Shown: positions 4,910-62,498 of the stretch, one piece after another
Numbering within the stretch: position 1 is the first letter of the stretch
Layout of the letters: the number at the start of each line of letters is the position of its first letter
Virus record (IMG/VR): IMGVR_UViG_3300042465_009257
Coordinates: 64,001 to 128,000 of that record
Direction: 5' to 3' (one strand)
DNA: 64,000 nt
Origin: a virus
The notes under the pieces: model-generated
Database searches by the model: none
The model's input: only the letters and a program-made list of their open reading frames with translations
What the model was told of the DNA's origin: nothing
Translations under genes and position numbers: made by a program

Positions 4910-5498
4910 TGCTCCATTGTTGGGCAATTGCTTCCGCCATTCCTTCAAAACTTTTAGAGCGAATTTTCCAACGATCTGGTCCTGGAGGAGCGCGGTGAAT
5001 AGCAGACCATAGTTTATGTTCTTCGGTTCCTTTAACAGGAGGAGTCAATTTATGAGTCGGAACTAGCGGGGGTAAATTCTTTAGCCAAAAACAAGTTGCC
5101 TTAAAGGCCAGATCGCCAAACCACCAAGGCTGAACAATACAATCTGGCTTTCGATAACGGCTCGACATAATACCAATTGGATTTTCTACCGCAATTTTGG
5201 GGATTGGAGCATTAATGAGTTTCATAAAAAACTCAATTGCTGCTTGTTGTGATCCATCTGCAATCTTTTGAGGAAACCATCTCGCGCCACTCACGCAAAG
5301 ATGAGTGCATTCGGGGTGAAAAATAGCAAGATCCCATCCATCTTCTAAATGATTCATCACATCATCTTGAATATGAAAAGGAGAACCGTCATCAGCGGGA
5401 AGAATGTCAAGGCTCCAAGCATCATGGCCAAGTTTTCTAAAAGCTTCCCGAATTGTTCCGCTTGATTCACAGCCAACGAGGATTTTAAGTTTTTTCAT
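4902..5498 (-). CDS. short phage DNA (cytosine-5) methyltransferase-like protein
   Basis: SAM-binding start LVGCESSG, catalytic HPECT (PC-like), ENP motif, KATCFW; little or no target-recognition domain. Confidence 0.72.
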   Translation of the reverse strand: MKKLKILVGCESSGTIREAFRKLGHDAWSLDILPADDGSPFHIQDDVMNHLEDGWDLAIFHPECTHLCVSGARWFPQKIADGSQQAAIEFFMKLINAPIPKIAVENPIGIMSSRYRKPDCIVQPWWFGDLAFKATCFWLKNLPPLVPTHKLTPPVKGTEEHKLWSAIHRAPPGPDRWKIRSKSFEGMAEAIAQQWSID

Positions 5499-6151
5499 TT
5501 TTGTTTTGAATTTCTAATTTGCATTACCGCATCCTCAATATTCATTCCTTTTGTAGTGATTCTATATCTCAATTTTTCATAATCTACTTCTAAAGTCTCC
5601 GATAGCTCCACCATTGTAATTTCACGCCCTTGGTAATTAATAATATTATTATTCCTTTTATTTCTGCCCTGCTCTTTTAAAGATGACCATTTACAATTTT
5701 CAATACTGTATCCTTTATTATTATCTTTTCTATCTAAAGTTTTTCCTTCGGGCCTTTCCCCCATATCCAATAAAAATAAACTAAAATCTTTCCATCTTTC
5801 TTCTATGGTAATTCCTCTTCCTCCATAGTCTTTATACCTTTTCTTGTTTTTTTGATTGACTCTAGCCCACATTGATTCCCAAGATGAATAGGTTGGGCTT
5901 TTTATACTATTTTTAATATGCCCATGTTTAATACTTCTCTCTCCAATGTTATCCATGAATTCTTGAGCTAAACATCCGCAACTTTTTATTTTTCCGCTAG
6001 TTACACTCCACCGTAAATATTCCTTTTCTTTCCCGCAGTCACATTTAAAAAGATAAAGACGGTTTCCAACGTATTTTACTACTGTCAGTCGTTCAAATTT
6101 TAGCCCAGTTTGAAGATATTCTCTTGCCATATTTTTAATATTTAACGTCAA
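5495..6151 (-). CDS. HNH-type free-standing homing endonuclease
   Basis: KCDCG...KSCGC zinc motif, YGGRGI, TLDRKDNNKGYSIENCKW...EQGRNKR. Confidence 0.82.
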   Translation of the reverse strand: MTLNIKNMAREYLQTGLKFERLTVVKYVGNRLYLFKCDCGKEKEYLRWSVTSGKIKSCGCLAQEFMDNIGERSIKHGHIKNSIKSPTYSSWESMWARVNQKNKKRYKDYGGRGITIEERWKDFSLFLLDMGERPEGKTLDRKDNNKGYSIENCKWSSLKEQGRNKRNNNIINYQGREITMVELSETLEVDYEKLRYRITTKGMNIEDAVMQIRNSKQK

Positions 6152-7058
6152 ATTTATTTACCCAGTTTGAAATCTCTTCTTTATTCATCTCGCCAAAATC
6201 ACCTTTGCTTGGTGGGGCGTTGATAATTTTATCTGAAGAAAAAAAAGTAGAAAGCTTTATCTTTATTTTAGCAGCGGCGATTTGGCCCCTATTCTCCAAG
6301 CTGTCTGCATCATCATTCAGAGCTACGAAGATAGAGGTTGGGTTGATTTTTAATAAGAAGCTAAGTCTCGCCGCAGATAGAGACAACCCAAAATTACATA
6401 ATACATTCCAGTAGCCCGAATCACAAAGTTGCAATACATCTCCTATGCTTTCTACAATAATGATTTGACCAGTCTGCCGAATTGCTTCGATGTTCCTCTC
6501 AAATGCCGGGTAAATCCAATCACTCTTTGAGCCTTTAAGCTTCCATTTAACGACGCCCCTTTCTCCACGATTCAATGCGTCCCGTCCTGCCGCCCCAATC
6601 AATTTCCCCTTATCATTTCGGATCTTAAATACAATTCTTCCATAAAGGGGGCCATTTTGTGCTAAACCTGCCCCCATGTAATCTAATGTCTCTTTCGAAA
6701 TTCCGCGCCGCAAGAAGAAATCGTAGCTTTTTACCAAATCGGCGTAATCAGATTCTACTAGAAATTTTTGTACTTTTATCTTTTCCTTGTCTTGCTCTTC
6801 ATATTCGCCGTCATCAACATCAGTGCCCGTAAGCCACTTTTTTGCGTCGGCCTCGCTAATCTTTTTGCAAATAGAAACAAACTTTTCCCAAGTCAAGAAA
6901 CGAGATTCAATAGCATCCCAGACATTACTTTCGTAACACCAAGCACCATTAGGATTATTTCCGCCGCGATACTCGGTTGAGATTGCACAATAGTTGCCCC
7001 CAACATAGTTTACGGCAATACCTAGTCTATCTAGACGATTTCGGATTTTATCTAACAT
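6135..7058 (-). CDS. DNA primase (DnaG-like TOPRIM)
   Basis: RIVFKIRND..G..GR core, TOPRIM IIVESIGD and LNDD, C-terminal GDFGE. Confidence 0.85.
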   Translation of the reverse strand: MLDKIRNRLDRLGIAVNYVGGNYCAISTEYRGGNNPNGAWCYESNVWDAIESRFLTWEKFVSICKKISEADAKKWLTGTDVDDGEYEEQDKEKIKVQKFLVESDYADLVKSYDFFLRRGISKETLDYMGAGLAQNGPLYGRIVFKIRNDKGKLIGAAGRDALNRGERGVVKWKLKGSKSDWIYPAFERNIEAIRQTGQIIIVESIGDVLQLCDSGYWNVLCNFGLSLSAARLSFLLKINPTSIFVALNDDADSLENRGQIAAAKIKIKLSTFFSSDKIINAPPSKGDFGEMNKEEISNWVNKFDVKY

Positions 7059-7409
7059 TTATAAAGAAAATGGACTCCACTCTACACGATATCCCGCTTT
7101 TTGCAAATCTTCTACCATATTTTTTGCGGCAAATTCATTGTAACTATGTACCACAAATTCCTTAACATCGGGCTTATTAGCTGTAATAAATCTCACAACC
7201 TCTGAGCCAGTATTCTTCTCTGCGGGATTTTGATAAGCCTCTCCATTTAAATCATGATCTAAAGAAACGAGATCATACCGACCCTCTTTCAAAGCCTCAA
7301 TGCAATCTGCCGCGTTCCAAACCTGACGCAATTCATCACCCTGCTCTTTAGTTTGGAAGAACTTCGAGTGCCTGGACGAATCATCATCACAAAAAAGTAT
7401 TTTTTTCAT
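7059..7409 (-). CDS. stand-alone receiver-fold protein (cyclic-phosphate-processing REC type)
   Basis: ILFCDDD, LVSLDHDL, TG, VHSYN motifs. Confidence 0.72.
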   Translation of the reverse strand: MKKILFCDDDSSRHSKFFQTKEQGDELRQVWNAADCIEALKEGRYDLVSLDHDLNGEAYQNPAEKNTGSEVVRFITANKPDVKEFVVHSYNEFAAKNMVEDLQKAGYRVEWSPFSL

Positions 7410-7425
7410 ATTTGTTAAAATAAAA

Positions 7426-7452
7426 TTTCAAATTGTTTTACGCTCCCTGTAA
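7426..7452 (+). promoter_or_regulatory. class II promoter TTTCA-N17-TGTAA with overlapping TTAC-N7-GTAA palindrome (7438-7452)
   Basis: Same spacing as the motif before tail genes; 12 nt before ATG 7465. Confidence 0.65.
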
Positions 7453-7464
7453 CTAAAGGTATCT

Positions 7465-7620
7465 ATGAGATTAAAAATTGTTACCGAAAAATATCACTTC
7501 ACCTTTAGTAAGTCATTATCAGAATTGTTTAAGAGAATTGTTAAAGAGACTGACCTTTCTCAAATTCGCGTTATTGAGCGTGCCATCGAAGATTTCGCGG
7601 TTAAGAAGGGGGTAAAATAA
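7465..7620 (+). CDS. ribbon-helix-helix DNA-binding protein (51 aa), copy 1
   Basis: Not in the ORF track. MRLKIVTEKYHFTFSKSLSELFKRIVKETDLSQIRVIERAIEDFAVKKGVK: alternating beta strand then two amphipathic helices; 21/51 identical, ungapped, to 25571-25729. Confidence 0.8.
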   Translation: MRLKIVTEKYHFTFSKSLSELFKRIVKETDLSQIRVIERAIEDFAVKKGVK

Positions 7621-7621
7621 T

Positions 7622-8620
7622 ATGAAGAAGGGTCGTGGAAATTACAGGCTAGACAATTATGTTTATCTATACTTAGATAATCGGAAGCTTGGTAAATGGG
7701 AATTTAGAGACTGGACTTTTCTTTATCAGCCATTTTATGTCGGACGCGGTCTTGATGATAGAATTAACGCACATACAAAGCCGTCTGAACTTTCTAAACC
7801 TTTTCGGAAATCTAGGATAATAAATAAAATAAGACGAGTTCTAGGGGAGGAGGTTATCCGATTTAAACTTTATGAAGATTTATCTTACCAAGAATCGGCG
7901 TTCCTCGAAAAGGATATAATTGCATTTTTTGGGAGAGAGAAAAATGGAGGTATTTTGGTTAATCTCTCTAAGGACGAATGGGACCGCCCGGCGAAAGAAC
8001 GAACTTCAAAAACCTCAAATTCAAGAGCGTTACCCACGAGTAAAAGAGTTAATCAATATTCTTTAGATGGAGTTTTTATAAAAACTTGGGAGTATTTAAC
8101 AGAAATAAGAAACTCTCTGAGAGGGAAAAGTCGAGGGATTGAGTATAGAATCAGAGAATGTTGCAGGGGCGAAAGAGATAACTGTGATGGTTTTATTTGG
8201 AAATATGAGGGGACTTCCCCTTACTCTCCTCCTCGCATTCCTCAGCCACACTCTAAACCTGTTTTTCAATATTTCAATGGGAATTTTGTAAAAAGTTATG
8301 AATCTGGTGTCGAGGCGGCATTACAAACCGGATTAAATCATAAAGCTATATCACTATGTTGTCTAGGAAAAACTAAGACATCAGGAGGTTTTCGGTGGTT
8401 TTTCGAATATGTAGGAGAATCTATACCTCCTCTTGCAGCCACTGTTCGAAAACTATACGGAAGAGGTGTCAACTGTTTCGATTTGGAAATGAACTTTCTT
8501 GAAAAATATATAAATATCAAGGATTTTTCAAGATCCAACTCTATAAATGAATCTGCGGGCTATCGCGCTGTAAATACTGGTTTACCCGTTAAGGGGTTTT
8601 ATGTAAAATACTCTTCATAG
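7622..8620 (+). CDS. GIY-YIG (LEM-3-like) endonuclease with NUMOD1-type repeats
   Basis: YVYLY...FYVGRG...R...H, E in FLEKDII, LVN; repeats VNQYSLDGVFIKTW / VFQYFNGNFVKSY...GGFRW. Confidence 0.82.
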   Translation: MKKGRGNYRLDNYVYLYLDNRKLGKWEFRDWTFLYQPFYVGRGLDDRINAHTKPSELSKPFRKSRIINKIRRVLGEEVIRFKLYEDLSYQESAFLEKDIIAFFGREKNGGILVNLSKDEWDRPAKERTSKTSNSRALPTSKRVNQYSLDGVFIKTWEYLTEIRNSLRGKSRGIEYRIRECCRGERDNCDGFIWKYEGTSPYSPPRIPQPHSKPVFQYFNGNFVKSYESGVEAALQTGLNHKAISLCCLGKTKTSGGFRWFFEYVGESIPPLAATVRKLYGRGVNCFDLEMNFLEKYINIKDFSRSNSINESAGYRAVNTGLPVKGFYVKYSS

Positions 8621-8623
8621 TTT

Positions 8624-8884
8624 TCATTTCGTTAATTTCTCAACCTCATTTAATTTTTTAATAATCTTCCCAACATTCTTAATTGCCGCTAGATCAACTT
8701 TAACATCATAAATCACTAAACCTTTTTTAAAAGAAATATTGATTCCAAATGCAGCATCAGCGCTAATCCAACCTCCGTCAAATTCCGCCCAAGCTAGGTC
8801 GTCGGCGTGACCGATTTTAGTAACTTTGATCCCGGCTGATATTAAGATTTCGTTAATTTGGGCAATGGTCGCTTCTGTATCCAT
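8624..8884 (-). CDS. hypothetical protein
   Basis: 86-aa ORF in operon. Confidence 0.6.
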   Translation of the reverse strand: MDTEATIAQINEILISAGIKVTKIGHADDLAWAEFDGGWISADAAFGINISFKKGLVIYDVKVDLAAIKNVGKIIKKLNEVEKLTK

Positions 8885-8887
8885 TTC

Positions 8888-9154
8888 CTACCAGTTATAA
8901 TAGCTAATAGATGGGGCATGAATGTCTGAGGCTGATTTACCAAGATAATGTTTCTCATCTTTATCAGCACCACAATCCGCAGAAAAATAAAGAAATCCAT
9001 CTTCATCAATTTTTAAATCTCCTCTCTGCCCATAATAGAATGTATCGTCGCCTGGGCTTCTATTGGAAAAATATGCCCTTGCCGAACCTACTTCCGAGAC
9101 TTTTTCGTAAAGTTTTTTTAAAGTCATTATATTGGCTTTATTTCCAATTTTCAA
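8888..9154 (-). CDS. hypothetical protein
   Basis: 88-aa ORF in operon. Confidence 0.55.
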   Translation of the reverse strand: MKIGNKANIMTLKKLYEKVSEVGSARAYFSNRSPGDDTFYYGQRGDLKIDEDGFLYFSADCGADKDEKHYLGKSASDIHAPSISYYNW

Positions 9155-9614
9155 TTTCTTCTTCCTGTGCTGGAGTTAAAGTCGTTTCCAATTCACCAAT
9201 TCTATCATTTACATCAATTTCTGGAAATCCAAAAATCATTTCATGAAATTCTTTCACATGAGGCAGGTTTCGATCTGTTTGGTCTAAAGTAAGACGTAGA
9301 CCTGTTCCCATCATCAGATCGTCAATATCTTTTTCAAAATCATTAATTTCAATATAGTATCGCTCCCCTTCAGCGTCCCAGCTAATTACTTCATTTTCTT
9401 CGCCATAAATTGTTGTAATATTTTCTCGAACAACTTCTGTGCCAGTTCTTAAACTATCAATCATTTCTTGGGGAACATATTGGCTTGCCTCCGCCATTTG
9501 ATCCTTAGTGAGAGAGATACGATATGTACAAGGCTCTGATAAAAGAAATTGTTTAATTGAGTTTGGAAGGTCGCAGCTTCTTCCAATTGTCGGCGATAGC
9601 ATAAGTTTTGTCAT
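9138..9614 (-). CDS. hypothetical acidic protein
   Basis: 158-aa ORF. Confidence 0.6.
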   Translation of the reverse strand: MTKLMLSPTIGRSCDLPNSIKQFLLSEPCTYRISLTKDQMAEASQYVPQEMIDSLRTGTEVVRENITTIYGEENEVISWDAEGERYYIEINDFEKDIDDLMMGTGLRLTLDQTDRNLPHVKEFHEMIFGFPEIDVNDRIGELETTLTPAQEEEIENWK

Positions 9615-9685
9615 AGATTATATTTGATTGAGCTTGATTACCGTAGTCTGATTTTTTCTATTGTCAAATGGGCTTTCAGATTTAT

Positions 9686-10234
9686 TTAGTCGTCTGGATT
9701 GCATTCAGAGCATCCTGGGTCCCCACAATTACTTTCTCCACCTTGGTTTTCGTCCATAAGGAAGCTATCCATCAGTTGGAGGATTACAAAAGGTTCTTCC
9801 GGTAAAGGCATTCCAATCTGATTTTCACTCCAAGCCTCTTCGTCATCATCTTCCCATTCTTCCGGGTCAATGACATTAATTCCTGCTTCAAAACCTGTCT
9901 CTTTAACGAAGTTCTCTAAATCTTCCAAGGTCTCAGGCTGAATATAGAAGCGCCAGCCATTTTTATCCCAGTGCGTAAATGCGACCTCCTTCATTTCCAT
10001 ATCGCCGTCTTTCGTAAGCGAAACCATCTTCTGCATATCTTTTACTACCTCACGGGAGTTTTTCAGATCTTCTTTTGTCAAAATTTCAGAAGGTGCTGAG
10101 TGGCGATAAGTAGCTCTTTCTTTAAATGCTAATTCTTTTACATGGTCAAGCTGTTGCGAGGAATTAAAAATTTGGGATGTGATAAACCATTTTTTTGTTA
10201 CGGTTTTTTTAGGTTTCTGGATTTTTGCGGGCAT
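9686..10234 (-). CDS. hypothetical protein with acidic C-terminus ending in CGDPGCSEC
   Basis: 182-aa ORF preceded by a sigma70-type promoter. Confidence 0.65.
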   Translation of the reverse strand: MPAKIQKPKKTVTKKWFITSQIFNSSQQLDHVKELAFKERATYRHSAPSEILTKEDLKNSREVVKDMQKMVSLTKDGDMEMKEVAFTHWDKNGWRFYIQPETLEDLENFVKETGFEAGINVIDPEEWEDDDEEAWSENQIGMPLPEEPFVILQLMDSFLMDENQGGESNCGDPGCSECNPDD

Positions 10235-10253
10235 ATTAAAGTTTGACTAATTT

Positions 10254-10282
10254 AGTATATAGAGTTTTTAAGGATTGGTCAA
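10254..10282 (-). promoter_or_regulatory. sigma70-type promoter TTGACC-N17-TATACT
   Basis: Read directly. Confidence 0.78.
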
Positions 10283-10290
10283 TTTTAAGA

Positions 10291-11811
10291 TTATTTTGAA
10301 TATTTCGAGTAAGTTGCTTTATTGCGATCTGAAGAGCTTTGACGAGGAGTGAGTTGACCTGCTGATCCCAACGCCGCAACAACGTCCTTATAAGTTCCTG
10401 CCTCTGTAACTCGAAAATTAGAAAAATTTAGATTAATATGATTCTCTACCCAAACTGTTTGGTTTCCTTCTAATACTTCAAAAGGGCCAGACTCATCAGC
10501 GAATTCTCCAAGATTTCGTACAACAATCATACTCAGTTTGTGACTCCCAAATTTATTACTTTCTGTTCCAATCTCTTCTGGACTTTTACGGGTTAAGCTA
10601 AAAATTCCAGTGCTGTACCACTTTACCCGGTCAGCCTGTGCGATTTCTGAAGATCTATTTGTCTGGATGGCTGTAATGGAAATTGTTCTTGGCAGCTTTT
10701 CCGCTAATTGTTTCATAAGATCTGTTTTCATGCCGATTAGCTCATACTCTTTTAATGCTTGGCCTCCATTTCCAGCAGTTCGATCTTCATTTCCGGCAAA
10801 CTTTAGATAATCTAAAACGCATACAAAAATATCATCTGGTCCAACAAATTTAGAATGGAATCTTTTTGCTACACTTTCGATCTTATGAATATCCGCTGTT
10901 GGTAAATAATGATGGTAGATTGTTCCAGCCTTATCTCTAAACGATTGGAGCGAGTCTTGAGTTTTTTCTAAGCGATCTTTATCTTCCGCGAATTTGCCAT
11001 TGAGATAATAAAATGCATTTACTCCACTTTTCGCTGCCATTTTTCGGCAAGCTACCTCTCTTTTTGTCATTTCGGTATCAATAAAAAGAACCCGAATTTT
11101 CCCCTTCTCCCTCTTCGCTCCAAGTTCAACAAAATGATCTGTCAAAGCTGATAAAAAAGAACTCTTGCCTACCTTGGATGAAGCGGCAAAAACATACAGA
11201 CCTCCAATCATAAACTGCCCGTACCAACGATTAAAAATTGGGAAAGGCGACGGGAGTCCAAGCTCTCCTTTATTTCCTAATCCTTCGTTTAGCAAAGCCT
11301 CCATATCCCCATTGATATCGGTAAAGCTTTGGTCTTCTCCTAATACAGATTCAATTGTAACAGCATCAGTAACGATCTTCTCTGTCCCCGATAGAATATC
11401 TCGAAAATTAATCTCAGGATTTTCTAAACTTGTCTCAATAAATTTCTGCGCCTGAATAAGTTTCTTATATGTCTGCCGAGACCAATGGAATTTAGTTAAT
11501 TCGTCTAGGTATGCAATTTTGGCGTCTAAATTAATAGACATATGCGAAATTGAAGTAACGTAGTCGGCAACATCAAGGCCCTCTACGGAACTAAGTCCCA
11601 TCAAATTCAATCTAGAAATTAATAAATGCTCATCTAGTGTTTTTGTTTCAGCATAAAGAGTTTTAATTGCCGAAAATATCTTCTGATTAGGAGGAAAAGA
11701 GAAGAAGTCTGGCTTTAGATGTTCTCCAACTTCTCCAAGCCATCCAGGATCTTTGAAAAAACATGAAATCAAACAACGCTCAACTTCTCCGGTAATAATT
11801 CGTTTTGACAT
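10291..11811 (-). CDS. dnaB: replicative DnaB-like helicase
   Basis: DnaB N-terminal domain (ERCLI...F...NQKIF), Walker A ASSKVGKS, IDTEM, LDYL, IQTNR. Confidence 0.88.
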   Translation of the reverse strand: MSKRIITGEVERCLISCFFKDPGWLGEVGEHLKPDFFSFPPNQKIFSAIKTLYAETKTLDEHLLISRLNLMGLSSVEGLDVADYVTSISHMSINLDAKIAYLDELTKFHWSRQTYKKLIQAQKFIETSLENPEINFRDILSGTEKIVTDAVTIESVLGEDQSFTDINGDMEALLNEGLGNKGELGLPSPFPIFNRWYGQFMIGGLYVFAASSKVGKSSFLSALTDHFVELGAKREKGKIRVLFIDTEMTKREVACRKMAAKSGVNAFYYLNGKFAEDKDRLEKTQDSLQSFRDKAGTIYHHYLPTADIHKIESVAKRFHSKFVGPDDIFVCVLDYLKFAGNEDRTAGNGGQALKEYELIGMKTDLMKQLAEKLPRTISITAIQTNRSSEIAQADRVKWYSTGIFSLTRKSPEEIGTESNKFGSHKLSMIVVRNLGEFADESGPFEVLEGNQTVWVENHINLNFSNFRVTEAGTYKDVVAALGSAGQLTPRQSSSDRNKATYSKYSK

Positions 11812-11857
11812 CAATAATTAATTTTACAATAAAGGTTTTCTATGAAAACTAAAATTT

Positions 11858-13554: not shown

Positions 13555-14691
13555 TCAACCCTGTTCAACTCTTATAATAAACTCCTTGGAGAGAAAATCA
13601 ACGATTGCTGGATTATCATCCAGCCATTTGCCAACTGCTCCGATTCCCCGGAACTTTTCTTCTGGCTCAAATCCTCCACGAGCTAAATCCTTAATTAAAT
13701 TTGGATGCGGATAATACATCTGACCCTTACCTTCTGGTCGAGAAACAAGCTGCCACATTTCAAGCAAATCAAGAACCTCTTTTTCACGCCAAACAGATTT
13801 TCCATCAGTCTGTCCATAACGAATTGGATATCGAATTTCTCTCAAATAACTTTCGTTGTCAGATTTGACAATTTTGCATTTTGCGTAATGACCGATTGGC
13901 TTTGATTTTTTTTCGTCTCCTTCGCGAATGATATCCGTTTCCCAGCGAGGCTGAAAGTCTAAAACCCATCCAGCCGCGTGTTCTACAGCGTGTCCTCCAC
14001 TCGCAGATCCCTGCTTGGGATTACTTTTTTCGTAAGTATTGATCTTAATTGTATCTCGTACTTGGGAGATTAAAACCGTATAATGTCCACGCTTTGAAAG
14101 AGCAATTGATACGGTTTTAAAGAAAACTGATGTCAATAAAGCTCCTCCTGCAACTTGTCCAGCAACACCGAATGGTTTCAAAGCATCCTCTTTTTTAATC
14201 ATCATGTCAAGACTATCCATGATAAAGAAATATTTACACTTGGACTTATTGAACTGAAGCAGATCACGGATCATTTGGAAAACGAACTCAAAAATATTGC
14301 TGTCAACAATAAAACAGGTTCCGTTCTCCCACTCTTCTTCATTTTCTACGAATTTAATACCAGAGCGTTTTTGGGAATTTGGAGAAAGCTTTCCCTCGCA
14401 ACGGAAGTAAATCCCACGACGCTCAAATTTATCGCCATTGCCCTGAAGAAAATGAAACATATAATCTAGTGCCGCACTAGTTTTTCCTCCCGAAGGCGCT
14501 CCAATGAATCGATGCGCTCCTGGTTCTAATCCACCATCCATCTGTGAATTCATTAACATACTAGAAGACGGAACTTTATAGTAGATAGTATCTTCAAAGT
14601 TGTAATGATCTTCTTTATTTGCTTTCAGGATATTTGATAATACCCGAATTGATTCATTACCTTCTTCTTCTTTTTCCTTCTTAATTGCCAT
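13555..14691 (-). CDS. recA: RecA/UvsX-like recombinase
   Basis: Walker A GAPSGGKTS, IMDSL, ISQVR, SGGHAVEH, KIVKS. Confidence 0.88.
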   Translation of the reverse strand: MAIKKEKEEEGNESIRVLSNILKANKEDHYNFEDTIYYKVPSSSMLMNSQMDGGLEPGAHRFIGAPSGGKTSAALDYMFHFLQGNGDKFERRGIYFRCEGKLSPNSQKRSGIKFVENEEEWENGTCFIVDSNIFEFVFQMIRDLLQFNKSKCKYFFIMDSLDMMIKKEDALKPFGVAGQVAGGALLTSVFFKTVSIALSKRGHYTVLISQVRDTIKINTYEKSNPKQGSASGGHAVEHAAGWVLDFQPRWETDIIREGDEKKSKPIGHYAKCKIVKSDNESYLREIRYPIRYGQTDGKSVWREKEVLDLLEMWQLVSRPEGKGQMYYPHPNLIKDLARGGFEPEEKFRGIGAVGKWLDDNPAIVDFLSKEFIIRVEQG

Positions 14692-24424: not shown

Positions 24425-24702
24425 TTGTTTTTTACGATAAACGCGATTATTGGACTTGTCAATGGAATATATAATGGAAAACCTGCGATAAGGCAAATCC
24501 CGAGAGATAGCCAAAGATTATGGCACAATTGGCATTTCCACAAGTTGAAAATTAAATCTGCACAAATTTTTTCAGCGGCGCGACGACTTTGCATCCAAAT
24601 CAGAAGCCTAGTTCTGAAATCTTCAAAAAGTGTAGACTCATGGGTTACAAAATTTAAATAAGACAGTAAAATGCCTACGCAAATAATTAGTTCTAAATTC
24701 AT
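24406..24702 (-). CDS. small membrane protein (DUF1360-like)
   Basis: Hydrophobic segments and L..CQLCHNLW motif. Confidence 0.55.
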   Translation of the reverse strand: MNLELIICVGILLSYLNFVTHESTLFEDFRTRLLIWMQSRRAAEKICADLIFNLWKCQLCHNLWLSLGICLIAGFPLYIPLTSPIIAFIVKNKCLNPT

Positions 24703-25388
24703 ACATCTTGTAAACCTTCTTTTAGCTCCGAGTCAACCCATTTTTCCATTTTTCTCACCATCTCGCCGCCTTCTTTCCACAAACCAGAATTTTCCTTCAT
24801 TACACGTTCCACCTCTAAACGTGGAATCGACTCTCCATTCTCAAATTTGCTAAAATCATGCCAGCGGAATTGAACATCAGCAGCTTTGCGGATTAGTGGG
24901 TCATTTTTCTCTTCCTCGCTGTTCGCTGGCTCTAGAACATGGAATTGCCCATACCAGTCCTTGCTGTCATATCTTTCAACGTGGACGATTTTCCCACCAT
25001 TAGATTTTACAAATCCAAGCTCGTCGCCGCCGCCAAATTCCGCAAAACGCAAATCCGTAATAAATCTTACTTGCGGTCCTTCTGGGGAAAGGAGAGTATC
25101 TCGGATTTTATTCAACCAATACTGCCCCTTACTATCATTTCTGCGGAGCTTGCCATATTGAACAAGCAATGGCCGAACCCTTGTCTTCTCTTCAGTAACC
25201 TCGGTAAACGCCGAAAATCCAAACTTATCAGTTATAAAATGGTCCAGGTCTCTCTTCAATTCGTCGGCGAAAGCCCATCGCCCGCAGGTGATTCCTTCTT
25301 CTTTGAGAAAATCAGAGGCGAATCTGTAAAAAGAGTCCTTGCCCGATCGCCCGACCCCCGAAAGGGCTATAATTTTAAATGATTTCAT
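24699..25388 (-). CDS. deoxynucleoside monophosphate kinase (T4 gp1-like)
   Basis: P-loop SGVGRSGKDS, AFADELK, R.LLVQYG, ITDLRF..E; start ATG 25388. Confidence 0.85.
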   Translation of the reverse strand: MKSFKIIALSGVGRSGKDSFYRFASDFLKEEGITCGRWAFADELKRDLDHFITDKFGFSAFTEVTEEKTRVRPLLVQYGKLRRNDSKGQYWLNKIRDTLLSPEGPQVRFITDLRFAEFGGGDELGFVKSNGGKIVHVERYDSKDWYGQFHVLEPANSEEEKNDPLIRKAADVQFRWHDFSKFENGESIPRLEVERVMKENSGLWKEGGEMVRKMEKWVDSELKEGLQDV

Positions 25389-25394
25389 TCCTTT

Positions 25395-25424
25395 ATTATA
25401 GGTGGAAACGAAAGAAAAAGTCAA
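25395..25424 (-). promoter_or_regulatory. sigma70-type promoter TTGACT-N18-TATAAT
   Basis: 6 nt before the kinase ATG. Confidence 0.75.
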
Positions 25425-25529
25425 CCGACTGTCTCAAAATGATTATTTTCGCGAAAAAAAATGGTTGAGGCTTTCGGATTTGACCAAAAAACGGGCAGGA
25501 AAAGAATCATTAATAATTTAAAATAAATT

Positions 25530-25556
25530 GTTCCCTTTTCTTTACCATTCCTGTAA
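25530..25556 (+). promoter_or_regulatory. class II promoter GTTCC-N17-TGTAA with TTAC-N7-GTAA palindrome (25542-25556)
   Basis: 14 nt before ATG 25571. Confidence 0.62.
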
Positions 25557-25570
25557 TTAAACATATAATT

Positions 25571-25729
25571 ATGAATCACCGAATTAAAACTAAACGCTAT
25601 AATTTTTGCTTTGACCCGAAAATTGACGAACTCTTGAAAAAAATTAAAGCAGAAACTTCAATAGGATTAACGAAAATTGTGGAGTTAGCTGTTGTTGATT
25701 TTGCCGAAAAGAAAGGAGTTTCTTTATGA
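25571..25729 (+). CDS. ribbon-helix-helix DNA-binding protein (52 aa), copy 2
   Basis: Not in the ORF track. MNHRIKTKRYNFCFDPKIDELLKKIKAETSIGLTKIVELAVVDFAEKKGVSL; ATGA overlap with the nuclease ORF. Confidence 0.8.
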   Translation: MNHRIKTKRYNFCFDPKIDELLKKIKAETSIGLTKIVELAVVDFAEKKGVSL

Positions 25730-26523
25730 TCGGTGTCGTTTTTAACATGAATATCGAATCTCTTGCGATTTGCCCAAGAACCAACGGAATTTACAAAATC
25801 ACAAATACGAAAACAGGAAGATTCTATATTGGCCGAGCAGAATACAAGAAAGGTTTTTTTCGCCGGTGGTATCACCATAGGTGGCAACTTAGAAAAAATA
25901 TCCATGAAAATCCTCATTTGCAAAACTCTTATAACAAATATGGAGAGTCTTGTTTCACCTTCGAGATTCTTGAAATTAAAGACTATGGAGATCCGTTAAT
26001 AGATCTAGAGTCAGAATATATCATAAATTTAAAAGCCATGTACTTTGAAGACGGGTATAATCTTACGAATGAAAGGTTTGCCGCAAAATATCCTAAAATA
26101 TACAGAGAAAATCATCATAACTCAAAAGAATTTGAACTGCTTGACCCAGAAGGAAATTTAATTAAAGGCAGGAATTTAAGTCAATTCTGTGAAGAACTAG
26201 ATGTGGGCGTAGGAGCCATGTGGGATGTCATCCACGGAGATAGAAAATCCTACAAAGGATTCAAATCTCCCAATCCCGAATTTCACGTAGTTAAAAAAGA
26301 GTATCGCTTGCTCTCGCCCGAAAAAGAATTGTTCGTATTTGACAACGCCGCAGAATTCGCGAGAAAGATAGGGGTAAACAAACGTTCTATACACAAAGTA
26401 TTAAAAGGGGAAAGGTCTAATGCCGAGGGCTACCATCTTGAAAATCCATTACCAGAACATCAAAGAAATCTTGATAATTATTTCAATAGGAAGCATCTCT
26501 CTGATCGAATCAACTTTCAATGA
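25726..26523 (+). CDS. GIY-YIG homing endonuclease (I-TevI/Seg-like)
   Basis: GIYKITN...FYIGRA...RRW..H...L....H.N..LQ..YNKYG...F.FEILE...E..I...GYN; two C-terminal HTH-like repeats. Confidence 0.88.
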   Translation: MIGVVFNMNIESLAICPRTNGIYKITNTKTGRFYIGRAEYKKGFFRRWYHHRWQLRKNIHENPHLQNSYNKYGESCFTFEILEIKDYGDPLIDLESEYIINLKAMYFEDGYNLTNERFAAKYPKIYRENHHNSKEFELLDPEGNLIKGRNLSQFCEELDVGVGAMWDVIHGDRKSYKGFKSPNPEFHVVKKEYRLLSPEKELFVFDNAAEFARKIGVNKRSIHKVLKGERSNAEGYHLENPLPEHQRNLDNYFNRKHLSDRINFQ

Positions 26524-26674
26524 ATCCGTCCAAATCCTTTTTTAGCTCATCAGCAAAAGCCCAGCGGCCACATGAAATTCCCTCCGTTTCTAGAAATTCC
26601 GAAGCGAAGCGGTAAAAAGAGTCCTTCCCCGCCCGACCGACGCCAGAGATTCCGATAATTTTAAATGGTTGCAT
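26510..26674 (-). pseudogene. truncated 5' copy (54 aa) of the dNMP kinase
   Basis: MQPFKIIGISGVGRAGKDSFYRFASEFLETEGISCGRWAFADELKKDLDGFIES*; 41/52 aa identical to the start of the full kinase. Confidence 0.85.
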
Positions 26675-26680
26675 TGATGA

Positions 26681-26710
26681 ATTGTATCGGGCTTTTGTGC
26701 GGAAAGTCAA
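26681..26710 (-). promoter_or_regulatory. sigma70-type promoter TTGACT-N18-TACAAT of the kinase remnant
   Basis: 6 nt before ATG 26674; same geometry as 25395-25424. Confidence 0.75.
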
Positions 26711-26731
26711 TCTTAGAATTTTTAAAATTAA

Positions 26732-26758
26732 ATTCCTTTTCTGCATATTCGCCTGTAA
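26732..26758 (+). promoter_or_regulatory. class II promoter ATTCC-N17-TGTAA
   Basis: Upstream of the PolA-like gene; followed by TTGACT-N17-TTTAAT (26765-26793). Confidence 0.55.
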
Positions 26759-26800
26759 AAGAACTTGACTTATTTGATTTCCGACTTTTTAATTACTGTG

Positions 26801-28345
26801 ATGCCTAAAATGAATTACTCTCTGGTAAACCCCGATAAAACGATTCTCAAAAATGAAAACATGATTCGAACAATAGGGTATGGGGGAGAGGGGACCATTG
26901 CTGGAGGGAGGGAGAGGGTGTCTCTTTATAAGGGGAGGTTTAGAGAAGTACAAGAAGTAATAGAGGGGAGGTCTATACTTAGTAATGATGTAGATTGGGA
27001 ATTTAAAGAGAAATCTTTCTTAATCCCTTCAGACTTTTCTAATAATGAGCTTCTTAGCCTTGGCTTGAAAGAGAAACATATTGCGAATGCTATGGTTTTT
27101 CTTTCCTTATTAAGGATTTCAACAAAGTACAAAGAGGTTGTTCTGAGGGATGTTAATCCATTCAGTAGAATTAACAGTATAGTTCTTTCGGAATTTATGT
27201 TAACTCTTGGCTCCGGTACGAAAGACATGTTGAAAAAATTAAGCATTGCACAATGGATTGAGATTGACCATTCTTACCAAGCAGGAATCAAATCAAAAGG
27301 ATATCGTCTTGGGAAAAGATTTGAAAACTCAAAATGGATTTCCGCAAATTGGAAAGAAAGTCTTGAAAAATTTGTCCCAGGTGTCCTGCAAGGAGGTTAT
27401 ATTTCTAGGAGCAGAGATGTTTTGTATGGACTCTGGGATAGAGCTTGTATATATTTTACCAACTGGCAGGCTATGGCTGACGGCCCTTTAAAGGAAATCT
27501 GCAAAAGAACGTCAGAAATAGGCCGTAAATTGATCGTAAGATACTGTGAGGCTCTGACTAAGGAAATTAATACAAACGCTGTAGAGCATATCAAATGCCC
27601 AGCAAATCAAGCATCTGTAGAAAATGGATGGACACTAGAGAAACAAATTCAAAATTATTGGGATTCTTTGTCGTATTTTGACGGTAAAAGTTTTTCTGTT
27701 ACCTGTCACGACGAAAGGTTTAAGTTTTTTACTTACCGTTTGTATTCAAATGTTGTAAATTTAAAATCTGAGTTTCGCCAATTTCTAGAACTAGATGGAC
27801 AGCAAATGGTGAACGTGGATATCCAATCCTGCCAAGTGGCTTTACTGGCGACATTCTATAACACTGAAGATTTAGTGGAAAAAGAGAAATTCATCAAAAT
27901 TATTTGCGAAAAAGATATTTATCTATTTATCGCGGGAGATAAAATTGAGCGGAAACAAGCGAAATCTGACTTTTTCTATATCATGTTCGACAAGAATTGT
28001 AACCAAAAAGGAGAAACTTGCCGCCGATTTAAAGAGGAATTTCCAATCTTAACTCAAAGGATTTACGACGAAAAGAAAAGAAATGGTTATAAAAGTGTAG
28101 CTCGTCTAATGCAGACAAAAGAAGCTTCTATTATGATATTAGGAGCATTGAATAAACTCCTTTTCGTAAATGAAATTGAAGCTTTTTCAATCCACGACTC
28201 TATCTTTTGTCTTCTTAAAGACGTAAAATTAGTAGAAGAAACTATCCGCTCCTTCTTTACAAATCAAATGGGCTTCTGCCCAGCAATTAAAGTGGAAGCG
28301 CCCAGAGTGGATGAATCTGCCAACCGTATTGGGCAGCAATCATAA
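26801..28345 (+). CDS. minimal family-A polymerase-like protein with putative winged-helix N-terminal region
   Basis: YRLYS...FRQFLELDG..MVNVDIQSCQ (motif A), RKQAK...IMF (motif B), IHDSI (motif C); no exonuclease motifs; start ATG 26801 inferred from promoter spacing. Confidence 0.68.
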   Translation: MPKMNYSLVNPDKTILKNENMIRTIGYGGEGTIAGGRERVSLYKGRFREVQEVIEGRSILSNDVDWEFKEKSFLIPSDFSNNELLSLGLKEKHIANAMVFLSLLRISTKYKEVVLRDVNPFSRINSIVLSEFMLTLGSGTKDMLKKLSIAQWIEIDHSYQAGIKSKGYRLGKRFENSKWISANWKESLEKFVPGVLQGGYISRSRDVLYGLWDRACIYFTNWQAMADGPLKEICKRTSEIGRKLIVRYCEALTKEINTNAVEHIKCPANQASVENGWTLEKQIQNYWDSLSYFDGKSFSVTCHDERFKFFTYRLYSNVVNLKSEFRQFLELDGQQMVNVDIQSCQVALLATFYNTEDLVEKEKFIKIICEKDIYLFIAGDKIERKQAKSDFFYIMFDKNCNQKGETCRRFKEEFPILTQRIYDEKKRNGYKSVARLMQTKEASIMILGALNKLLFVNEIEAFSIHDSIFCLLKDVKLVEETIRSFFTNQMGFCPAIKVEAPRVDESANRIGQQS

Positions 28346-45441: not shown

Positions 45442-45461
45442 GACCTTTTACCTATCACATA

Positions 45462-45488
45462 TTACAATCGACTACTCCAAAATGGAAA
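45462..45488 (-). promoter_or_regulatory. class II promoter TTTCC-N17-TGTAA
   Basis: 20 nt before the tape measure ATG. Confidence 0.75.
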
Positions 45489-45489
45489 T

Positions 45490-46362
45490 TTAATTGCGTT
45501 TTTTCTTACTCTGCGCCAAATCAGCCTCAACCTCCGATCCCGACAATTCTTTTTCCTCTGGCGGCGCGTTATTTTTAACGATAGCGTAGGTCTCCAGCAT
45601 TTTCGGCTCTTTATAGAAATCCTCTGGCGCTTCCCAAGCAATTTTAATAACCTCATTATATCTCTTAGCCAAACGAAGCAAATTCATTTGATATACTGTC
45701 AATTCCGGCGCGGGTTTTTTAAAGAAATCTCCTGGATTTGAAACGTAATTATCAAAAACAGAATAGAAAAAAGAAGAAACAACAAGAAGTTCTAGGTATT
45801 CCTCATTGAATTTTAATACTTTATTAGAGTAATCATTGCGCAAAATGGTCAATTCAACTTCGCCCAATAGATTAAATTCTTCTTCTTCAAAGAACGGCGA
45901 CCCATCAAGTTTGCGGCTGGCCAAGAAAATTTCAAAATCATACGAGCGACTATAGGCATAAGACTCGCAACAATCCTGGGTAGCAATATTCCGCTTCATA
46001 GCGTCAGAATCAATGTCGTCCTTCATCTCCCGCAAAGTCTCATGGAAGCTTCGAATATTCTGCACCATTCCCATTGCCGGAATTTTGGAACGCCGCGCCC
46101 AAATCATCTTATAATCATCTAATTTTCTTTTAAATGATTCTTCATTTTCTTGGCTCCAAAAAGTCGGATCATTAAATTTATTTAATATAGTATCCCGCAA
46201 CTCTACTCCGTGATCTTTGGCCCATTTTAGATGTTTCTCGCGGTCCTCATCTACTAAACACTGGTCAAAAATAGATTGATGAATATATACGATAGGCTGG
46301 CCCCTGAAAACAGAGGTAGTCTTACCTTCGCAAATCTCTTTATATCCGAAAACTTGGCTCAC
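45490..46362 (-). CDS. putative tail assembly chaperone
   Basis: Between tail tube and tape measure; FFKKPAPELTVYQ; GTGA overlap. Confidence 0.5.
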   Translation of the reverse strand: MSQVFGYKEICEGKTTSVFRGQPIVYIHQSIFDQCLVDEDREKHLKWAKDHGVELRDTILNKFNDPTFWSQENEESFKRKLDDYKMIWARRSKIPAMGMVQNIRSFHETLREMKDDIDSDAMKRNIATQDCCESYAYSRSYDFEIFLASRKLDGSPFFEEEEFNLLGEVELTILRNDYSNKVLKFNEEYLELLVVSSFFYSVFDNYVSNPGDFFKKPAPELTVYQMNLLRLAKRYNEVIKIAWEAPEDFYKEPKMLETYAIVKNNAPPEEKELSGSEVEADLAQSKKKRN

Positions 46363-50476: not shown

Positions 50477-50499
50477 ACAGTAAAATTAGTTAATATTCT

Positions 50500-50526
50500 T
50501 TACAATCAGTCGGTTTTAAATGGAAA
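50500..50526 (-). promoter_or_regulatory. class II promoter TTTCC-N17-TGTAA
   Basis: 23 nt before the tail tube ATG. Confidence 0.78.
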
Positions 50527-50551
50527 TTTTAATTTTTGTTTTTTAATTAGC

Positions 50552-52168
50552 TTAAGGGGCCACTATTGGAGGTGCAGTTACAATGACTAAACGAGGGCGA
50601 ATAGAGGCAACAAGATTATTAGCTGAATTAAATTGTAATCCATCTCCACTACTTTCATCAGGCCCTTGAAGTAGCCAACCATTATTAGAAGATGGAGTCG
50701 TAACCCAGCCTTGTACGGTAGCTACATTTAGATTTATTGTGCAAAATCCAGTATAATTATCCAAGCCTTGCCCTACAGGAGTGGGACCATAAATTGTTTC
50801 AGGAGTACTTACAGCATCTACGTTATTAGCGCTGATTCCATTTACAAGGGTATCCCAAGTATCTGTAGCTACCCATGGAATTAAGATCTTATGCATTACG
50901 AAGCCAAGCCCTTCAGTTCCGATAAGTATTTCCAGATAAGCCTGGATTACTATTTGATCTGTAGGTATAGATGATAAATCAAACTGAATAAATGCTTGTC
51001 TTGTTCTAGAGACAGTTGGATAAGCCGAATAATCCCAGTCAACCACCAAAGTTGTTGATGTTCCATTCGCAGTAGTAGGAAGACTTGAATCTAAATACGT
51101 ATCAACATTTCCCGTGTAAGATGATACCCCTTGTTGAAAACTATAAGTAGTAGGTGCTCCCAATGAACGATCAAAGCGAAAAAGTGGATAATTCGTACTA
51201 GTCCCGCCGTGTGTTGTAACGTATTCAGAACAGGTATAATAATATAAACCAGATGAGTCAAAGCAGATTGCTTCCCCCTGAGGTTCTGCGTTGGTTTGAA
51301 CAGCTTTAAAACCACTTGCTTTTATTCCTGTCGCGCATGGCATTTGAGTTGGCGCAGTCGCCAAAGCATCATAAACGGTTTGAGTTGATGGATTGCGGGA
51401 AAAACGAGAGACTTTATCGTAAGAGCGAACTAGAATTTCGGTTCCATTTGGGGAAATACAGCCCCCGGTCGCATACCCATCATTACCAGAAGGTGTGGTG
51501 GAAAGTGTATTAAAAGTAGCATCTGCCGAAAGTTCCCCCATGTAAGTCAGCGTTTGAGTTCCGGTGTAACTCGCGGCCCATGACAATTTATAACATAAAG
51601 TTGGTGTAATTCTCTTTGTAATAATAAAAAGATCTCCAGTAAGAGGGTCTATAATCGCCGCCTCAACATCTTTATGCGTAGGAATATTCCCTCCTGGAAA
51701 GGCACAGACGATTTCTTCCCAATCAGTTCCGCTGGCTAAAGTCCCATCACTTCCTGTGACAACTGGCTCTTTTATCCGAAATACTTTAAATGTAGCCCTG
51801 GCATTGGCATTATCACCAGTATCCAGTAAATATACATAAGCGATGCCGCCGCGCCGAACTGAGCCGCATTCTTCTACGTCAGAAACACTCGCTCCAGTAA
51901 GAACCCACTTTCCTGCATTGGCGGCAGTGGCGCGATTAATGGCGATAATATGAGGATTTGCGCCGTCCTCAATTGCCCAAATATAATTCTTATTTTCTTG
52001 ACGTTGAGCAGTAGCTAATCCAGAAAGTTCAACATAAGCAATCGGTAAATTGCCAACCTTGACTGGGCCATAAAACCACCCTTTTTTACTCTGCTGTGAA
52101 GCAGCAGGATGCCCTGATAAGCTGACAACCGATAAGAGTAAAAAAATAATAAATAGAATACGATTCAT
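50552..52168 (-). CDS. signal-peptide protein: beta-propeller plus C-terminal DNRLRE/CBM96-like domain
   Basis: MNRILFIIFLLLSVVSLSG signal; ELSGL, DTGDN, DVEA, QGEAI blades; DTYLDS..P...FIQFDLS.IP...VQGW...NNGW...RPRLVI. Confidence 0.65.
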   Translation of the reverse strand: MNRILFIIFLLLSVVSLSGHPAASQQSKKGWFYGPVKVGNLPIAYVELSGLATAQRQENKNYIWAIEDGANPHIIAINRATAANAGKWVLTGASVSDVEECGSVRRGGIAYVYLLDTGDNANARATFKVFRIKEPVVTGSDGTLASGTDWEEIVCAFPGGNIPTHKDVEAAIIDPLTGDLFIITKRITPTLCYKLSWAASYTGTQTLTYMGELSADATFNTLSTTPSGNDGYATGGCISPNGTEILVRSYDKVSRFSRNPSTQTVYDALATAPTQMPCATGIKASGFKAVQTNAEPQGEAICFDSSGLYYYTCSEYVTTHGGTSTNYPLFRFDRSLGAPTTYSFQQGVSSYTGNVDTYLDSSLPTTANGTSTTLVVDWDYSAYPTVSRTRQAFIQFDLSSIPTDQIVIQAYLEILIGTEGLGFVMHKILIPWVATDTWDTLVNGISANNVDAVSTPETIYGPTPVGQGLDNYTGFCTINLNVATVQGWVTTPSSNNGWLLQGPDESSGDGLQFNSANNLVASIRPRLVIVTAPPIVAP

Positions 52169-62416: not shown

Positions 62417-62432
62417 AATTAGTTAGTACTAA

Positions 62433-62459
62433 TTACAAATATTGAAGGGAAAATGGAAA
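62433..62459 (-). promoter_or_regulatory. class II promoter TTTCC-N17-TGTAA
   Basis: 16 nt before ATG 62416. Confidence 0.78.
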
Positions 62460-62498
62460 TTTTAATTTCTAATATTATTAGCTCCCTATTTACATATA

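Follow-up and report, generated by a model that had tools for sequence, protein, structure and literature searches.

We identified a portable unit in a viral genome in which a putative late-type promoter and a predicted ribbon-helix-helix (RHH) gene of about 50 codons precede a homing endonuclease gene. The window analyzed is a stretch of 64,000 nucleotides, bases 64001-128000 of a 173,358-bp IMG/VR virus record (39% GC), and positions given below are window positions unless marked as genome positions. The small open reading frame (ORF) is present in six copies genome-wide, all of them on the + (minority) strand and upstream of a nuclease gene, and its metagenomic relatives are strongly enriched upstream of nucleases from at least five families. 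Among the selfish elements of large phages, homing endonuclease genes are the most common. We regard it as reasonably probable that the RHH protein would act as a CopG/Arc-style negative autoregulator which caps nuclease dose late in infection.

Two of the cassettes, which we numbered c1 to c6 by genome order, lie inside the window, with c5 at 7465 and c6 at 25571. Their features are as follows:

7423-7453 (+), class II (late-type) promoter of c5, AAATTTCA-N17-TGTAAC, 11 nt 5' of the RHH ATG, from a whole-genome motif scan
7465-7620 (+), predicted 51-aa CopG/Arc-like RHH gene of c5, from BLASTP, profile and AF2/Foldseek analysis
7622-8620 (+), LEM-3-like GIY-YIG homing endonuclease with NUMOD1 modules, c5, from Pfam and PHROG matches
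25525-25557 (+), class II promoter variant of c6, AAATTGTTCC...TGTAAT, 13 nt 5' of the RHH ATG
25571-25729 (+), predicted 52-aa RHH gene of c6, Pfam RHH_3 at E 3e-4
25726-26523 (+), Seg/I-TevI-like GIY-YIG homing endonuclease with NUMOD-like DNA-binding domain, c6, from Pfam and PHROG matches

The initial annotation had described the two small ORFs as homologous, each coupled to a GIY-YIG nuclease of a different subfamily and inverted against its surroundings, and all of this was borne out. BLASTP aligned the c5 and c6 small proteins without gaps and with 21 of 50 residues identical (E 7e-14). In c5, 1 nt separates the RHH stop (last base at 7620) from the nuclease ATG at 7622, while the two genes of c6 share an ATGA overlap at 25726-25729. 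Both pairs form + strand islands among - strand genes. Pfam assigned the 7622-8620 product to LEM-3_GIY-YIG (E 8e-5, below the curated cut-off) and to NUMOD1 (above cut-off); the 25726-26523 product matched GIY-YIG/SegE below and the I-HmuI NUMOD-like domain above cut-off, as well as homing endonucleases in PHROG (E 1e-19). Each nuclease carries an N-terminal GIY-YIG catalytic domain and C-terminal NUMOD/helix-turn-helix (HTH) DNA-binding modules, as in free-standing GIY-YIG homing endonucleases, and no significant similarity was detected between the two (E 0.09). Since the nuclease start overlaps or abuts the RHH stop, RHH and nuclease are probably translationally coupled. The junction sequence of c5 further places the nuclease Shine-Dalgarno within the C-terminal KKG codons of the RHH gene. 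The same codons also provide the ribosome-binding site of the nuclease gene in c4, c5, c6 and two metagenomic loci (L114 and L117), and the two genes are therefore hard-wired together.

The cassette had initially been reported as present twice, and the pattern proved larger once the whole genome was considered:

c1, RHH start at genome 5765 (+), Seg-like GIY-YIG downstream
c2, RHH start at genome 9921 (+), LEM-3-like GIY-YIG downstream
c3, RHH start at genome 39712 (+), DUF723 zinc-ribbon nuclease downstream (PHROG 559, E 4e-55)
c4, RHH start at genome 59669 (+), GIY-YIG downstream
c5, RHH start at genome 71465 (+), LEM-3-like GIY-YIG downstream
c6, RHH start at genome 89571 (+), Seg-like GIY-YIG downstream

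Five of the six nuclease genes thus encode GIY-YIG enzymes, from two subfamilies, and one encodes a DUF723 zinc-ribbon nuclease.

A profile search scored by downstream neighbour, as had been suggested at the outset, was run to follow this linkage into other phages. The family is rare and unannotated, with 57 cluster representatives matched among 1.84 billion at a threshold of E <= 1e-3. Context was looked up for twelve metagenomic relatives, 11 of which were informative; one contig ended before any neighbour. A nuclease gene lay directly downstream of the RHH gene in 9 of these 11, with overlaps mostly of 4-17 nt:

P0004 and P0012, RHH relatives with LEM-3-like GIY-YIG downstream
P0007, P0009, P0021 and P0028, RHH relatives with HNH_3 downstream, with or without AP2
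P0033, RHH relative with T5orf172 downstream
P0037, RHH relative with a PHROG 99 (phrog_99) nuclease downstream
P0061 (in L114), RHH relative with an internally deleted LEM-3 remnant downstream

Among the loci from the metagenome scan, L118 carries a LEM-3-like nuclease and L117 a c4-like GIY-YIG. The two exceptions are L016, where 890 nt without any ORF follow the RHH gene and no nuclease remnant was detected in this gap, and the most distant member sampled (E 3e-4), which stands alone. At a background of 5%, the binomial tail is ~1e-10 for the 9 of 11 outside relatives and 4e-18 when counted over the informative members of the family (15 of 17). In at least 8 loci the gene upstream has the opposite orientation, and antisense placement therefore recurs.

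The reverse search started from 48 IMG/VR loci with LEM-3-like nucleases and found an upstream match to the RHH family in one of them (L080). About four other LEM-3-like loci carry different upstream ORFs of 47-52 aa that are RHH-like in appearance and overlap the GIY-YIG start:

L071:2365-2508, no Pfam match
L098:2344-2493, no Pfam match
L105:2337-2492, weak Pfam match
L084:2320-2460, no Pfam match

These four come from unrelated phages and three of them are antisense to their upstream neighbour, which suggests that this arrangement has also arisen from other families of RHH proteins. By a crude count, RHH-like upstream ORFs are commoner beside an opposite-strand neighbour (3/9 vs 1/31, p = 0.03). 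The RHH gene is thus optional and may go with nuclease genes that act as autonomous transcription units.

The histories of the two partners are uncoupled. The c1 and c2 RHH proteins are 84% identical and those of c4 and c5 60%, while the nucleases in both pairs are unrelated. Conversely, identity is 36% for the c2/c5 and for the c1/c6 nucleases, over alignments of 250-306 aa (250 aa for c1/c6), and their RHH proteins share ~30-36%. Locus L117 occupies a position syntenic with c4 and carries a c4-like nuclease, yet its RHH protein is 78% identical to that of c5 and 57% to that of c4. At the DNA level, the stretch homologous between c1 and c2 extends only from position -47 to position +132, counted from the RHH ATG, and the match between L114 and the window (80%) is confined to 7401-7621, which holds the promoter and RHH gene and ends at the nuclease start. 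Because cassette homology spans only the promoter and the RHH gene, and RHH and nuclease similarity are uncoupled, the unit is portable. This agrees with the initial annotation, which had placed the conserved part in the promoter and small gene and not in the nuclease.

The same comparison bears on an antitoxin-like role, in which the RHH protein would bind the nuclease protein and block its activity until needed. The gene order, with a small RHH gene followed by and overlapping the gene of a harmful enzyme, resembles type II toxin-antitoxin operons, and some family members weakly match the antitoxin-type RHH Pfam families PSK_trans_fac and TacA1. However, the pairing of near-identical RHH proteins with unrelated nucleases, and of related nucleases with dissimilar RHH proteins, speaks against a co-evolving interface, and the partners span at least five unrelated nuclease families. 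Family members are moreover bare RHH proteins with only 3-8 residues after helix 2 and hence no C-terminal toxin-binding extension; all 57 matches are 45-72 aa long and no fused forms were found among them. Direct inhibition, which the initial annotation had entertained, is therefore disfavoured and in our view highly unlikely. A complex prediction for the RHH dimer and the c5 nuclease scored 0.01, which gives no verdict and was counted neither way.

The small protein is predicted to adopt an RHH fold closest to that of CopG, in line with its first assignment. A profile of 61 family sequences matched CopG (PDB 1b01 and 2cpg) with E 4e-6 over residues 5-46 of 51, and 26 of the 61 members match Pfam RHH_3 or RHH_1. 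The AF2 monomer model (pLDDT 87) shows an extended N-terminus and helices at residues 16-29 and 33-48; its Foldseek matches are uniformly RHH, with CopG, Arc and ORF56 at the top (TM 0.7-0.85). The alternating N-terminal pattern (R/K)-x-(N/H/S/T)-F-x-F aligns to R4-L5-T6-I7-T8-L9 of CopG. Predicted base-contact residues, aligned to CopG R4/T6/T8, vary among paralogues (K/R, then H/N/T/S, then T/C/A/L), and those of c1 and c2 are identical. Tblastn with two RHH queries against 50,697 GenBank phage records returned no match, and pattern scans of IMG/VR using the RHH alignment yielded nothing that was confirmed.

The small ORF could also serve as a translational leader only, throttling nuclease translation through coupling while its protein product is functionless. 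Start/stop overlaps of 4-17 nt are the rule and, in the five loci named above, the ribosome-binding site of the nuclease falls within the KKG codons, as would be expected of a leader. However, the ratio of nonsynonymous to synonymous substitution rates (dN/dS) is 0.05 for c1 vs c2 and 0.04 for c5 vs its L114 relative (92% identity), synonymous sites being close to saturation, and the predicted RHH fold is conserved across the 57 diverged cluster representatives. The small ORF therefore encodes a functional protein under purifying selection and not a mere leader, which makes this explanation extremely improbable.

Upstream of the RHH genes, all cassettes share the motif AAATTTCC-N17-TGTAA(T/C/A), with the ATG 9-17 nt downstream, and the RHH genes of metagenomic relatives are preceded by the same promoter architecture. 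This class II motif occurs 40 times genome-wide compared with 4-8 times in shuffled sequence. It precedes ~20 other genes on both strands, among them the tail tape measure gene, and is therefore the general late-type promoter class of the phage. As candidate cis elements for RHH binding, an inverted repeat brackets the -10 element at c1 (9 nt) and c2 (8 nt), both outside the window, and its arms TAATAAGT and ACTTATTA form no other perfect pair in the genome. The sequence TTAC-N7-GTAA is common to c5, c6 and L114; as an RHH operator it remains unproven, being missing in L117, and TTAC half-sites are not enriched over control promoters. Palindromes that include TGTAAT occur in non-RHH promoters too. 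Operators specific to RHH subgroups are plausible from these patterns. Of the portable promoter-operator-RHH unit envisaged in the initial annotation, the promoter-RHH part holds, the promoter itself belongs to a general class, and no RHH-specific operator was shown.

In the mechanism that we favour, each cassette would consist of its own copy of the late-type promoter, an RHH gene of ~50 aa and a nuclease gene abutting or overlapping the RHH stop, the promoter-RHH module having recombined before unrelated nucleases (Seg-like GIY-YIG, LEM-3-like GIY-YIG, HNH_3, T5orf172 and DUF723/phrog_559). An RHH dimer or tetramer would bind a putative operator at or near the cassette promoter and presumably repress the bicistronic transcript. 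Nuclease dose would then stay low, independent of template copy number, during phage genome replication. Negative autoregulation is favoured because the layout matches that of copG-repB, arc-ant and ORF56-ORF904, and because Arc RHH proteins repress the native promoter of IS605 elements (bioRxiv 10.64898/2026.09.24.754181).

Several observations weigh against such autoregulation. The conserved DNA upstream of the RHH genes is a general promoter consensus, and no operator common to the cassettes was found, with TTAC half-sites near the -10 element in 5 of 15 RHH and 6 of 21 control class II promoters (p = 1). Inverted repeats flanking the -10 element are no longer than in control promoters, c1 and c2 excepted, and L117 is without TTAC-N7-GTAA despite having the same contact residues as c5. 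At L114:164-800, an intact and well-conserved RHH gene (92% identical to that of c5 at the protein level) sits beside a frame-broken LEM-3-like nuclease that has lost ~190 internal residues, so a role beyond nuclease control is possible. Finally, three further antisense nuclease cassettes of the same genome (L026-L028) have a class II promoter and are without the RHH ORF, and the RHH protein is therefore not obligatory:

genome 13340-14811 (+), LEM-3-like GIY-YIG cassette with the nuclease at 13642; a different small ORF upstream, HTH-like by eye, without Pfam or PHROG match
genome 51445-52553 (+), LAGLIDADG cassette with the nuclease at 51615; a 57-aa HTH mini-gene upstream that resembles the nuclease's own N-terminal HTH
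genome 29933-30970 (+), LAGLIDADG cassette without a mini-gene upstream

The HTH mini-genes, which occupy the same position as the RHH gene in two of these cassettes, are also what one would expect if the small protein was a controller-like timer that activates and then represses, or a trans regulator of other class II or neighbouring divergent promoters that offsets the cost of antisense insertion. A small DNA-binding gene overlapping a nuclease gene matches the layout of C-R operons, every cassette uses the late-gene promoter class, and the c6 promoter lies back-to-back with that of a kinase gene. On the other hand, the predicted fold is RHH and not the HTH of C proteins, no C-box-like repeats were found, and no conserved outward-facing sigma70-like promoter was found inside the RHH genes. 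Six paralogues with differing contact residues are also hard to fit to one shared trans target. We consider a timer or trans role rather unlikely compared with negative autoregulation.

Cassette c6 additionally bears what may be a trace of its mobility, in the form of two copies of the 5' end of a deoxynucleoside monophosphate (dNMP) kinase gene that bracket its RHH and nuclease genes:

24699-25424 (-), complete dNMP kinase gene with its own sigma70-like promoter at 25424-25395
26510-26746 (-), orphan 5' fragment of the dNMP kinase gene, ~54 homologous codons plus the promoter TTGACT-18-TACAAT

The kinase 5' end with its promoter and the orphan copy are 74% identical at the nucleotide level. 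The orphan fragment looks like a footprint of imprecise homing from a diverged donor, left behind by insertion of c6. No dNMP kinase relatives were found in IMG/VR, which leaves no empty-site comparison for c6; likewise, no close cassette-free relative was found, and window 5000-11000 returned no DNA relatives, near or distant, among GenBank phages.

That RHH gene and nuclease gene are carried together within the duplicated kinase segment would also fit a homing accessory or immunity factor, which would bind DNA outside the promoter and protect its own target, mark the cassette allele or aid cleavage and repair. Differing contact residues among paralogues are expected if each reads a different site, and the lack of a common operator points the same way. 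However, c1 and c2 share their contact residues yet differ in locus and nuclease, target polymorphism gives self-immunity without any protein factor, as is generally known for Seg and Mob nucleases of T4, and nothing in the sequence ties the RHH protein to a target site. Such a role seems unlikely to us, and it is possible that the intact RHH gene beside the decayed nuclease in L114 keeps homing/immunity or trans roles alive.

The L114 locus is also the example for a broader and more tentative proposal, namely that the promoter-RHH unit and not the nuclease is the persistent core of the element. This 220-bp 'nuclease-capture platform' might give any captured nuclease autonomous, dose-limited late antisense expression, outlive a decayed nuclease, as the intact RHH gene beside the deleted nuclease would illustrate, and be re-armed. 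We regard this as possible though doubtful.

Helicase and primase genes are separated by 0-600 nt in 36 distant IMG/VR relatives vs 3.2 kb here, including c5, and this interval looks like an insertion hotspot. In this region (window 6135-11814), the 3.2 kb hold four small genes, c5 and a cREC gene. The latter (7059-7409, -) encodes a protein with a cREC_REC (cyclic-phosphate processing receiver) domain (Pfam E 1e-13), lies between the primase gene and c5 and is unusual cargo for a phage replication module. Just past the kinase fragment, a 526-aa ORF (26765-28345, +) has a class II promoter (TGTAAA) 5 nt before its TTG start. Neither Pfam nor PHROG matched it convincingly, with nothing at E <= 0.001 and phrog_4756 weak at E 0.0011, and it may be another inserted gene.

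A separate observation concerns transcript starts. Genome-wide, AAATTTCC-N17-TGTAAT lies 5-28 nt from most start codons, with the following examples in the window:

45461-45491 (-), class II promoter, from the motif
50499-50529 (-), class II promoter, from the motif
62432-62462 (-), class II promoter, from the motif

Because class II promoters lie 5-28 nt and the sigma70-like kinase promoters 6 nt from the start codon, a leader of little or no length would be expected on many of the phage's transcripts. A candidate phage sigma factor gene at genome 156.7-157.5 kb showed no Pfam sigma domain at E <= 0.01.

If negative autoregulation by the RHH protein holds true, homing endonucleases would gain a new tier of control, a swappable DNA-binding controller that serves GIY-YIG, HNH, T5orf172 and other nuclease types and would explain how their genes sit antisense inside essential operons. 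Such a controller would also link phage homing endonucleases to Arc-regulated IS605/TnpB elements. The capture platform, if real, would offer a modular route for the birth of new homing endonuclease genes in phages. More generally, a mobile element can have as its conserved heart an ORF of ~50 aa, a size that commonly used annotation cut-offs exclude. Compact repressor-promoter pairs from this family would be of practical use where toxic nucleases have to be dosed.

Known controls of phage homing endonucleases include autorepression by I-TevI of T4, late and middle promoters, hairpins that sequester the ribosome-binding site, and the case of mobE of Aeh1. The cassettes described here resemble known phage homing endonuclease genes in their late-type promoter, in apparently tight dose control and in the placement of free-standing GIY-YIG genes beside genes of replication and nucleotide metabolism. 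They differ from T4, where control comes from the nuclease itself (I-TevI) or from RNA structure, in having a separate DNA-binding gene, and to our knowledge such a dedicated gene is not among the known controls. Most homing endonuclease genes of T4 run in the direction of the genes around them, whereas the cassettes here are antisense islands. Restriction-modification C proteins are likewise encoded by small, portable DNA-binding genes directly upstream of, and often overlapping, an endonuclease gene. In contrast to those HTH activator-repressors with defined C-boxes, the protein here has a predicted RHH fold, and its cassettes showed no such boxes and lack a partner methyltransferase.

Our literature search found no paper on RHH-coupled free-standing homing endonucleases in phages, the closest being a passing remark by the authors of the IS605 study, who noted that arc genes also occur beside those of homing endonucleases (bioRxiv 10.64898/2026.09.24.754181). 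Similar to IS605 Arc, the protein described here is a small (~50 aa), often unannotated RHH protein on a nuclease-dependent selfish element. Arc partners TnpA/TnpB and arc is often divergent from tnpB, whereas the RHH genes here are co-directional with, and overlap, genes of protein-only phage homing endonucleases. In the ~20 loci examined, the RHH gene neighbours phage genes and nucleases of the GIY-YIG, HNH_3 and T5orf172 types, and neither TnpA nor TnpB was found.

Minimal RHH proteins are well known as autoregulators, with CopG regulating repB and Arc regulating ant. The closest parallels to the cassettes are copG-repB of pMV158, ORF56-ORF904 of pRN1 and arc-ant of P22, in all of which a minimal RHH protein of 45-53 aa is encoded first in a short operon whose second product is needed at low dose. 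CopG is the best match in both sequence and structure, with size, beta-strand pattern and the two helices aligning. Unlike in these operons, the second gene here encodes a homing endonuclease instead of a replication initiator or antirepressor, and the pair, with its putative DNA-binding RHH protein, forms a mobile antisense insert under a phage late-type promoter in a lytic-type phage.

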